Part shown: in pieces, positions 52,402-54,874 of the stretch
Position numbering within the stretch: position 1 is the first letter of the stretch
Layout: each line of letters opens with the position of its first letter
The notes under the pieces: generated by a model
Seen by the model: only the letters and a program-made list of their open reading frames with translations
What the model was told of the DNA's origin: nothing
The model's database searches: none
From: Escherichia coli
GTDB lineage: Bacteria > Pseudomonadota > Gammaproteobacteria > Enterobacterales > Enterobacteriaceae
Strand: one strand, 5' to 3'
NCBI RefSeq assembly: GCF_041248615.1
Contig: NZ_CP158426.1
DNA: 64,000 bases
Position numbers and translations under genes: made by a program

Positions 52402-53088
52402 TCTATTTTAGTTAAGGAGTTGTGTATGTCAGGATTTAAAAAAGGTTTTTTATGGGGCGGCGCGGTAGCCGCGCATCAGTTGGAAGGTGGCTGGAATGAA
52501 GGAGGAAAAGGCATCAGTATCGCTGATGTGATGACTGCTGGCGCTCACGGTGTGCCGCGTGAAGTGACAGAAGGCGTTATCGACGGACTTAATTATCCCA
52601 ATCATGAAGCAATTGATTTTTATCATCGCTATAAAACAGATATTCAGTTATTTGCCGAGATGGGATTCAAATGCTTTCGAACTTCCATTGCCTGGACACG
52701 AATCTTTCCGCAAGGTGACGAACAGGAGCCGAATGAAGAGGGTTTAAAATTTTATGATGATCTGTTCGATGAATGCCTGAAGCAGGGAATGGAACCTGTG
52801 GTGACGCTTTCGCATTTTGAGATGCCTTATCATCTGGTGACAAAATATGGTGGCTGGCGAAACCGTAAACTGATCGACTTTTTCATCCGCTTCGCATCAA
52901 CGGTCTTCACGCGCTATAAAGAAAAAGTAAAGTACTGGATGACGTTTAACGAAATCAATAATCAGGTGAATTTCAGCGAAAGCCTGTGTCCATTTACTAA
53001 TTCCGGTATCTTGTATTCGCCAGAGGAAGATATCAATGAGCGCGAACAAATAATGTACCAGGCGGTACATTACGAGTTAGTTGCCAGT

Positions 53089-53129
53089 TGGATTTGCCCC
53101 TATATTTCCAGACACCTGTTATCACTTAA
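53089..53129. repeat. IS2 terminal inverted repeat (insD-proximal end)
   Basis: TGGATTTGCCCCTATATTTCCAGACACCTGTTATCACTTAA; extent approximate. Confidence 0.7.
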
Positions 53130-54005
53130 CCCATTACTGGCCTGCTGCCGCAGATATTCCCGTGGCGAGCGATAACCCAGTGCACTATGCGGATGCCATT
53201 CGTTATAATGCTCGAACGCCTCTGCAAGGTTCTTTGCTGCCGTTAACCCGTCTGGTTTAGGCATGATACTGATGTAGTCACGCTTTATCGTTTTCACGAA
53301 GCTCTCTGCTATGCCGTTACTCTCCGGACTCCGCACCGCCGTGTTCTTCGGTTCAAGCCCCAATATCCGGGCAAACTGCCGTGTTTCATTAGCCCGGTAG
53401 CATGAACCATTATCCGTCAGCCACTCTACTGGAGACGCCGGAAGCTCGTTGCCGAAGCGGCGTTCCACCGCTCCCAGCATGACGTCCTGTACTGTTTCAC
53501 TGTCGAAGCCGCCCGTAGTGACTGCCCAGTGCAGTGCCTCACGGTCACAGCAGTCCAGCGCGAACGTGACTCGCAGTTTTTCTCCGTTATCACAGCGGAA
53601 CTCGAACCCGTCAGAGCACCATCGTTGATTGCTTTCTTTCACGGCCACTTTGCCAGTATGTGCCCGTTTCGATGGCGGTACAGCGGTTTTTCGCTCAAGC
53701 AACAGCGCATTCTGGCGCATGATCCGGTAAACACGTTTGGCATTGATCGCAGGCGTACCATCAAGTTCGGCCTGTCTGCGAAGCAGCGCCCATACCCGAC
53801 GATAACCATACGTGGGCAGCTCTCCGATAACATGGTGTATACGGAGAAGCACATCCGTATCATCTGAGTGACGGCTGCGGCGACCATCTTTCCAGTCATC
53901 GGTTCGTCTGAGAATTACGTGCAACTGCGCACGCGACACCCGGAGACAACGGCTGACTAAGCTTACTCCCCATCCCCGGGCAATAAGGGCGCGTGCGCTA
54001 TCCAC
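53100..54005 (-). CDS. insD: IS2 transposase OrfB (InsD), 301 aa
   Basis: Track ORF 301 aa with DDE integrase core ([12 protein letters not shown]). Confidence 0.92.
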
Positions 54006-54328
54006 TTTTTTGCACGCCCGTATTCAACGGCTTCTTTAAGGAGTTCATTTTCCATCGTTTTTTTGCCGAGCAGGCGCTGGAGTTCTTTAATCTGCTTCAT
54101 GGCAGCAGCAAGTTCAGAGGCAGGAACGACCTGCTCTCCTGCGGCCACAGCAGTAAGACTTCCCTCCTGGTATTGCTTGCGCCAGAGAAATAACTGGCTG
54201 GCTGCCACACCGTGTTGCCGGGCAACAAGGGAGACCTTCATTCCCGGTTCAAAACTCTGCTGAACAATAGCGATCTTTTCCTGTGTAGTACGCCGTCTGC
54301 GTTTCTCCGGTCCTAAGACATCAATCAT
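53963..54328 (-). CDS. insC: IS2 OrfA (InsC), 121 aa
   Basis: Track ORF 136 aa; start placed at [24 protein letters not shown] (complement ATG 54326-54328); overlaps insD as expected for frameshift fusion. Confidence 0.9.
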
Positions 54329-54378
54329 CTGCTCTCCAATGACTAGTCTAAAAACTAGTATTAAGACTATCACTTATT

Positions 54379-54419
54379 TAAGTGATATTGGTTGTCTGGA
54401 GATTCATGGGGCCAGTCTA
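54379..54419. repeat. IS2 terminal inverted repeat (insC-proximal end)
   Basis: ...GGTTGTCTGGAGATTCATGGGGCCAGTCTA; extent approximate. Confidence 0.7.
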
Positions 54420-54874
54420 CTGGTCAGCAACCCTTATATCGATACATCCGAATGGGGATGGCAAATTGATCCGGCAGGGCTACGTTATTCACTCAACTGG
54501 TTCTGGGATCATTTCCAGTTGCCGCTGTTTATTGTCGAAAATGGATTTGGTGCGGTTGACCAGAGACAAGCTGACGGCACGGTGAACGATCACTATCGCA
54601 TTGATTACTTTGCTTCCCATATTCGGGAAATGAAAAAAGCCGTAGTCGAAGATGGTGTTGACTTAATTGGCTACACCCCATGGGGCTGTATTGACCTGGT
54701 TTCTGCCGGAACAGGGGAAATGAAAAAGCGCTACGGAATGATTTACGTCGATAAAGACAACGAAGGGAAGGGAACCCTGGAACGGATACGTAAAGCGTCG
54801 TTTTACTGGTATAGGGATCTCATCGCCAACAATGGCGAAAATATTTGAGACTTCAGGAAGATATTACGGAGATA

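Follow-up and report, generated by a model that had tools for sequence, protein, structure and literature searches.

An IS2 element without target duplication and a 348-bp deletion in the 6-phospho-beta-glucosidase gene of Escherichia coli NRZ14408

Insertion of an IS3-family element without a target duplication, through removal of the adjacent DNA, is a well-documented class of event, to which the deletions of the rbs operon described by Cooper et al. in 2001 reportedly belong. In three long-term evolution populations about 17% of the IS moves were accompanied by a deletion and left no target duplication; all of these involved IS150, a member of the IS3 family, and were explained as an insertion and then an adjacent deletion (PMC11708052). 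The biochemistry of IS2 itself is known in considerable detail. In step I the 3' end of IRR, once cleaved, is linked to the host DNA between residues one and two outside IRL, and the figure-of-eight so formed gives rise to a minicircle in which the abutted ends are separated by one host base pair taken from beside IRL; in step II cleavage at the 3' terminus of each end is followed by attack on the target with a 5-bp stagger (PMC3299598). Tandem dimers, (IS2)2, are known for IS2 as well (Szeverenyi et al. 1996, as cited in PMC3299598; PMC9333248); in IS30, the IR-IR junctions within dimers of this kind give rise to intramolecular deletions starting from an IR edge (PMC9333248).

Here we have studied a stretch of 64,000 nucleotides of E. 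coli DNA (the window), in which an IS2 splits a gene for a GH1 6-phospho-beta-glucosidase. As in the IS150 cases (PMC11708052), the IS3-family element stays in place, adjacent target DNA is gone and no duplication is present, and those cases were interpreted as we interpret this one, by insertion and then adjacent deletion or inter-copy recombination; unlike them, the window concerns IS2 in a natural clinical isolate, with a small deletion of 348 bp contained within one gene and no time series. With the IS2 copy-out/paste-in system of Lewis et al. (PMC3299598) the locus shares a canonical IRR, IRL, OrfA and OrfB, and its odd base lies exactly at the spacer position, immediately outside IRL; a spacer retained in the final product, on the other hand, was met neither in the IS2 literature surveyed nor in the 30 simple insertions examined. 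The genes at the locus are those of the bgc operon of septicemic and uropathogenic E. coli, for which the account in PMC3585215, summarising Neelakanta, Sankar and Schnetz (2009), gives the genes bgcR, bgcE/F/I and bgcA: in that account, too, there are a GntR-type regulator, PTS IIB/IIC/IIA and, last, a phospho-beta-glucosidase, but in NRZ14408 the glucosidase gene is destroyed.

The glucosidase gene and its operon

The window belongs to the terminus region of the chromosome, and its RefSeq annotation reads manA, fumC, tus, rstAB and onwards to ydeE and eamA, then an accessory operon, then marBAR, marC and ydeA. The interval from eamA to marB is occupied by six genes, which encode a divergent regulator of the GntR family, PTS IIB, IIC and IIA of the lactose/cellobiose family, a LamB-type porin and, in the last gene of the operon, the GH1 6-phospho-beta-glucosidase that is split by IS2. 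In gene content, and in a map position that we take to agree with the eamA–marB locus, the operon matches bgc. The E. coli NRZ14408 chromosome (NZ_LT599825.1) is the one record that the 2423-bp region of the split gene matches at 100%, with window position 52426 corresponding to 2680097 of the record; the isolate is named chiefly in publications about antibiotic-resistant E. coli and resistance plasmids. Elsewhere in the window, at 43065-43145, dcp and ydeI flank an 81-bp remnant that is annotated as a fragment of a 2-oxo-tetronate isomerase gene. The features of the operon and of the IS2 are the following.

47689-48387, minus strand: GntR-family regulator, BgcR-like (RefSeq annotation; NCBIfam GntR-family matches)
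48586-52401, plus strand: block of PTS IIB/IIC/IIA and porin genes, upstream of the glucosidase gene and in the same operon
48586-48897, plus strand: PTS IIB (RefSeq annotation; Pfam families)
49011-50333, plus strand: PTS IIC (RefSeq annotation; Pfam families)
50361-50672, plus strand: PTS IIA (RefSeq annotation; Pfam families)
50728-52401, plus strand: LamB-type carbohydrate porin (RefSeq annotation; profile match)
52426-53088, plus strand: 5' fragment of the bgcA-like gene, codons 1-221, holding the acid/base motif NEI (175-177); identical to nt 1-663 of the L004 allele (see below)
53084-53088, plus strand: CCAGT, the pentamer abutting IRR, nt 659-663 of the gene
53089-54419, minus strand: complete IS2, 1331 bp (ends as in the published IS2 IRs; NCBIfam models; PGAP)
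53089-53129: IRR (41 bp), abutting the 5' gene fragment
53100-54005, minus strand: orfB (OrfB, 301 aa)
53963-54328, minus strand: orfA (OrfA, 121 aa)
54378-54419: IRL (42 bp), abutting the 3' gene fragment, with a variant base at 54407
54420, plus strand: C beside IRL, where the intact gene has T (nt 1012)
54420-54848, plus strand: 3' fragment, codons 338-479 and stop, holding the nucleophile motif ENG (377-379); equal to nt 1012-1440 of the L004 allele except for the first base

The glucosidase gene is a common accessory gene of E. coli, present in 2561 of 5426 complete genomes, among them CFT073 (97.6% identity), and many genomes carry it as an uninterrupted 1440-nt gene with flanks 100% identical to those of the window. 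As the intact reference we have used the allele of strain 144 (L004:3001-4440, WP_000012603.1), of 1440 nt and 479 aa. Its score of 1034.9 bits against NF007154 (cutoff 624), a full-length family match, and its closest structure, PDB 3pn8 (E = 1.8e-240), mark it as a bona fide GH1 6-phospho-beta-glucosidase; in the window, each of the two gene fragments still matches PF00232.

When the window is aligned to this allele, the 5' fragment ends with YELVAS at residue 221 and the 3' fragment restarts at L338 (LVSNPY), and what is missing from the gene is one contiguous block of 348 bp, corresponding to the 116 codons 222-337. A previous sequence-only reading of the window had the N-terminal part ending at a VAS motif around residue 221, which is the exact value, and the C-terminal part resuming at an NPY motif around residue 340 with about 120 codons lost; the motif stands, while the figures become 338 and 116. 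The alignment also bears out that the two fragments, which that reading had described as in frame with the IS boundaries, are not contiguous in the intact orthologue, and that each amounts to a whole number of codons. Apart from the base at the junction, the combined fragments are identical to the intact allele in all their other 1091 nt.

Both catalytic motifs survive, as had been noticed, at residues 175-177 and 377-379. In GH1 enzymes the acid/base glutamate follows strand 4 of the barrel and the nucleophile glutamate follows strand 7; the lost residues 222-337 therefore include strands 5 and 6. No single uninterrupted ORF for the (beta/alpha)8 barrel is left, as these residues are gone and the IS2 stands between the halves, and since a barrel deprived of strands 5-6 and interrupted by an IS2 cannot work, the gene is dead. 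RefSeq already labels both pieces as pseudogene fragments. The use of beta-glucosides via this operon is most likely abolished or weakened in NRZ14408. What the locus records is that a multidrug-resistant clinical strain, in the course of an IS2 expansion, has lost an accessory route for beta-glucosides. An IS2 combined with a deletion is a known route by which insertion sequences destroy genes, and the event is real but ordinary, with little reach beyond the strain.

The IS2 element, its junctions and other IS2 copies

The sequence-only reading had recognized a complete 1331-bp IS2 at 53089-54419, and ends, length and ORF models all agree with it. The element opens with TGGATTTGCCCC and closes with GGCCAGTCTA, which are the complements of the tips of IRR and IRL respectively, both in agreement with the IRR and IRL given in PMC3299598 except for one substitution at position 13 of IRL. 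OrfA covers NF006928 (IS2 TnpA) from 1 to 121 of 121 and OrfB covers NF006918 (IS2 TnpB) from 1 to 301 of 301; the product of the overlapping orfA and orfB, a DDE transposase, matches PF00665 (rve) and is annotated by PGAP as intact, with a programmed frameshift and no pseudogene flag. There are no further IS2 ends in the 64-kb window. At IRL position 13 (window 54407) all the IS2 copies of this strain have A in place of the published C; the same variant occurs in DSM 103246 (L010), there with a normal CTGAG duplication, and the variant is therefore transposition-competent.

Both junctions fall exactly at the tips of the IS2, which abuts target DNA on either side. The pentamer next to IRR is CCAGT and the one next to IRL is CTGGT (54420-54424), so that, as first read, there is no 5-bp direct repeat; CCAGT may be the surviving copy of a target duplication. 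The repeat cannot be regained by moving the boundaries of the IS2, since its ends are the published IRs and the same tips are found in 30 other copies. The absence of the duplication coincides with the 348 bp of missing target DNA. On inspection of the sequence, the two ends of the deletion have no microhomology in common, a point against replication slippage.

Two likenesses around the junctions deserve mention. The six bases GCCAGT of the IRR-side flank (53083-53088) repeat those of the IRL tip region at 54410-54415, within GGCCAGTCTA, and the CCAG of the left flank is the reverse complement of the CTGG of the right one; we judge both to be coincidences, as the geometry is unlike that of IS2 end recognition. 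Likewise, the IRL-like hexamer ACTGGC beside IRR was considered as a pseudo-end for a site-specific deletion and rejected, because the junction would then keep four more bases.

The behaviour expected of an IS2 insertion was gauged from other copies. Exact matches to the OrfB of the window were found at ten IS2 copies in a second assembly of the same chromosome (L012-L021, GCA_014863425.1); 20 loci from other assemblies, 19 complete IS2 and one truncated, were added to these, for a total of 29 complete copies. A perfect 5-bp repeat flanks 26 of the 29 and three have no repeat, while a 4-of-5 repeat does not occur; with the copies of W150, E123, L009 and L010 added, perfect duplications amount to 30 of 33 complete IS2. 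The NRZ14408 chromosome thus carries at least ten IS2 copies, that of the window among them, that are 100% identical over 1331 bp; eight of the ten have perfect 5-bp repeats. By this comparison the window's IS2 is atypical, and the duplication is the mark of a simple insertion event, not of the IS2 element itself. Sequence identity among the copies is a sign that IS2 has recently expanded in this strain; since it implies recent, repeated transposition, two nearby insertions become plausible.

Two of these controls lie in the same operon, as independent simple insertions in unrelated strains. In W150 (L002 3338-4667) an IS2 sits in the glucosidase gene at nt 335-339 with TGATC on both sides, and removal of the IS2 and of one repeat gives back the full 1440-nt ORF; in the avian pathogenic strain APEC E123 (L003 3001-4331) it is the porin gene that carries the IS2, with AAATG on both sides and nothing missing. 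A second rearranged IS2 is present in the genome of NRZ14408 itself, at L013:947-2417, where nt 1-140 of IS2 run straight into a complete IS2, forming a partial tandem, without target duplication and adjoining an ISL3-type transposase gene. Flank matches of 12-26 nt at several IS2 copies were considered as a shared target or a longer element and dismissed, because in the two that were read, L009 and L010, they are only partial similarities due to chance; the IS2 in these two loci have normal duplications, CCAAG and CTGAG.

Routes to the deletion

An IS2 insertion combined with a second, nearby IS2-driven event that removed the 348 bp is our best explanation for this anatomy, and one that we consider probable, if by no means certain. 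A first IS2 would have entered the glucosidase gene by a normal paste-in during the recent burst; a second IS2 junction, contributed by a minicircle copy or by the IRR-x-IRL junction of a tandem dimer, would then have integrated 348 bp away in the same orientation. The two integration sites would be nt 659-663 (CCAGT) and nt 1012-1016 (TTGGT), and either one could have been used first; we infer this order of events, and the second integration, from the final structure. The interval could have been lost directly, as a circle released by intramolecular (dimer-junction) integration, or by homologous recombination between two identical direct copies. By either route the remaining IS2 would keep the outer half of one duplication at IRR and the outer half of the other at IRL, and because a single IS2 would thus retain the outer halves of two different duplications, there would be no direct repeat and codons 222-337 would be missing.

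The sequence-only reading had likewise proposed an insertion followed by an IS-mediated adjacent deletion or by recombination between two IS2 copies, and the junctions at the tips, the contiguous loss of 348 bp and the repeat-bearing controls sustain this as an either/or. As all ten IS2 copies are identical, adjacent deletion and recombination give sequences that cannot be told apart; identical copies leave no recombination scar by which a second copy could be demonstrated. A reciprocal junction, whose search had been suggested, is moot, because a deletion between direct IS2 copies releases a circle that is lost. The locus also illustrates, cleanly and in nature, how the removal of adjacent DNA leaves an IS3-family element with no target duplication.

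The same product could come from a single IS2 insertion followed by a one-ended, transposase-mediated adjacent deletion, with no second copy ever involved. In one version a copy at nt 1012-1016 is cleaved at IRR, and the 3' end so freed attacks that copy's flank at nt 663/664; in another an aberrant IRL-side event of a copy at nt 659-663 leaves one base of the old repeat behind. Either would put the junctions at the IS tips without a repeat, and so would be inseparable by sequence alone from the two-event explanation; IRR is indeed the only active donor end in step I of IS2 (PMC3299598), and adjacent deletions are frequent beside resident IS3-family elements (PMC11708052). Had IS2 first inserted at CCAGT, the C that was kept would be exactly the first base of the right-hand copy of the repeat, which is the normal position for the joining of IRR to host DNA; the IRR-side version, on the other hand, needs a separate explanation for the C, and no IS2 pathway in the literature surveyed gives an IS, one base and a new flank in one step. 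On balance we regard the one-ended deletion as rather unlikely. A single-step event, in which a double-strand break captured IS2, or IS2 integrated in the course of the 348-bp deletion, with no staggered cut and so no repeat at any time, would account for the lack of duplication and of a recorded precursor allele, and was raised as a hypothesis for some of the IS moves in PMC11708052; all 14 IS150 cases of that study were resolved as two-step, however, and here the endpoints show none of the microhomology that would suggest an independent deletion, while the junctions are precisely at the IS tips, as transposase chemistry predicts. We consider such an event very improbable.

What is left can be regarded as effectively refuted, the chance of any of it being slight indeed. 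Decay of the repeat by point mutation cannot remove 348 bp. An IS2 that inserted into a pre-existing 348-bp deletion allele would still have produced a 5-bp repeat, and no deletion-only allele is apparent, the records with both flanks (2533) being as many as those with an intact right junction (2533). An assembly error is contradicted by the same junctions in independent assemblies: the junction-spanning ORFs of 249 aa and 169 aa recur in other assemblies, on 9 and 6 contigs respectively, and L006-L008, three fetched loci with these ORFs, are identical to the window, so the structure is not an assembly artefact.

Precursors of the final structure were sought among available genomes. None of the 5426 complete genomes has an IS2 at either endpoint with the 348-bp interval retained; IS2 together with both gene flanks occurs in only three of them, NRZ14408, W150 and E123, the last two at other sites. 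Exact look-ups of the ORFs predicted for such alleles, a read-through ORF of 395 aa for an IS2 at nt 1012-1016 and a TTG-start ORF of 269 aa for one at nt 659-663, returned no record, and the missing 348 bp have no match near the other IS2 copies in L012-L021. A recorded 240-aa internal-start ORF was examined as a precursor and discarded, as it comes only from unrelated contigs: a fragmented metagenome, a 1-bp frameshift allele and another foreign sequence at nt ~672.

The gene is broken in other ways as well. The frameshift allele is that of L044 (316-1754), in which a 1-bp deletion splits the glucosidase gene into ORFs of 239 aa and 240 aa. In L042, 28 nt of unrelated sequence at the start of a Logan contig (1-28), probably another mobile element, abut the gene at nt ~672/673. 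Besides these, the E123-type allele has TGG>TAG at codon 467 (L003:7099-7104), which makes the protein 13 residues shorter, and the identical sequence of 1401 nt is common to the four best gene matches (H31-H34).

The base beside IRL

The base touching IRL on its outer side, at 54420, is C, while nt 1012 of the gene is T in L003, L004 and L005, where the intact sequence reads GAT|TTGGTCAGC. In order to see whether C is a natural allele, a 60-mer spanning the intact junction and carrying the C was searched among complete genomes. Among the 2533 records that have the intact junction there is no exact match to it, and all the matches listed differ from it by one base (98.3% identity); one record has at least 99% identity, and one falls short of 80% coverage, the lone record at or above 99% presumably being the window's own chromosome, through the part that follows the junction. 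We have therefore discarded the natural-allele reading, and since none of the 2533 carry C and the remaining 1091 nt are identical to the intact allele, the C is tied to the junction.

Probably, the C is a relic of the one-base junction spacer of IS2. A more specific claim, that the spacer nucleotide itself was carried over and is an in vivo footprint of the IRL+1 joining step, we put forward only tentatively, with our doubts outweighing our confidence. According to this scheme, the spacer nucleotide would remain after 3' cleavage as a 1-nt 5' flap on IRL, facing the 5-nt gap; if the gap were filled by four nucleotides and the flap ligated, the base touching IRL would be replaced, and a G opposite T would become fixed as T>C on the plus strand. 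With a first insertion at CCAGT and the same copy as the donor, the predicted spacer is the base observed. This match is only weakly diagnostic, because G adjoins IRL in four of the nine other IS2 copies of this genome. Spacer retention was seen in none of the 30 simple IS2 insertions examined, which would make it a rare occurrence, if it occurs, and we found no statement of it for final insertions in the IS2 literature surveyed.

If the spacer reading is correct, the IRL-side junction was made by the integration of an IS2 circle or of a dimer junction, and an observation at genome scale is linked to the biochemistry of IS2 circle junctions; spacer footprints might then help to identify the resident copy from which a new IS2 insertion was derived. 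The C at 54420 had escaped the sequence-only reading and is a small curiosity, mildly instructive.
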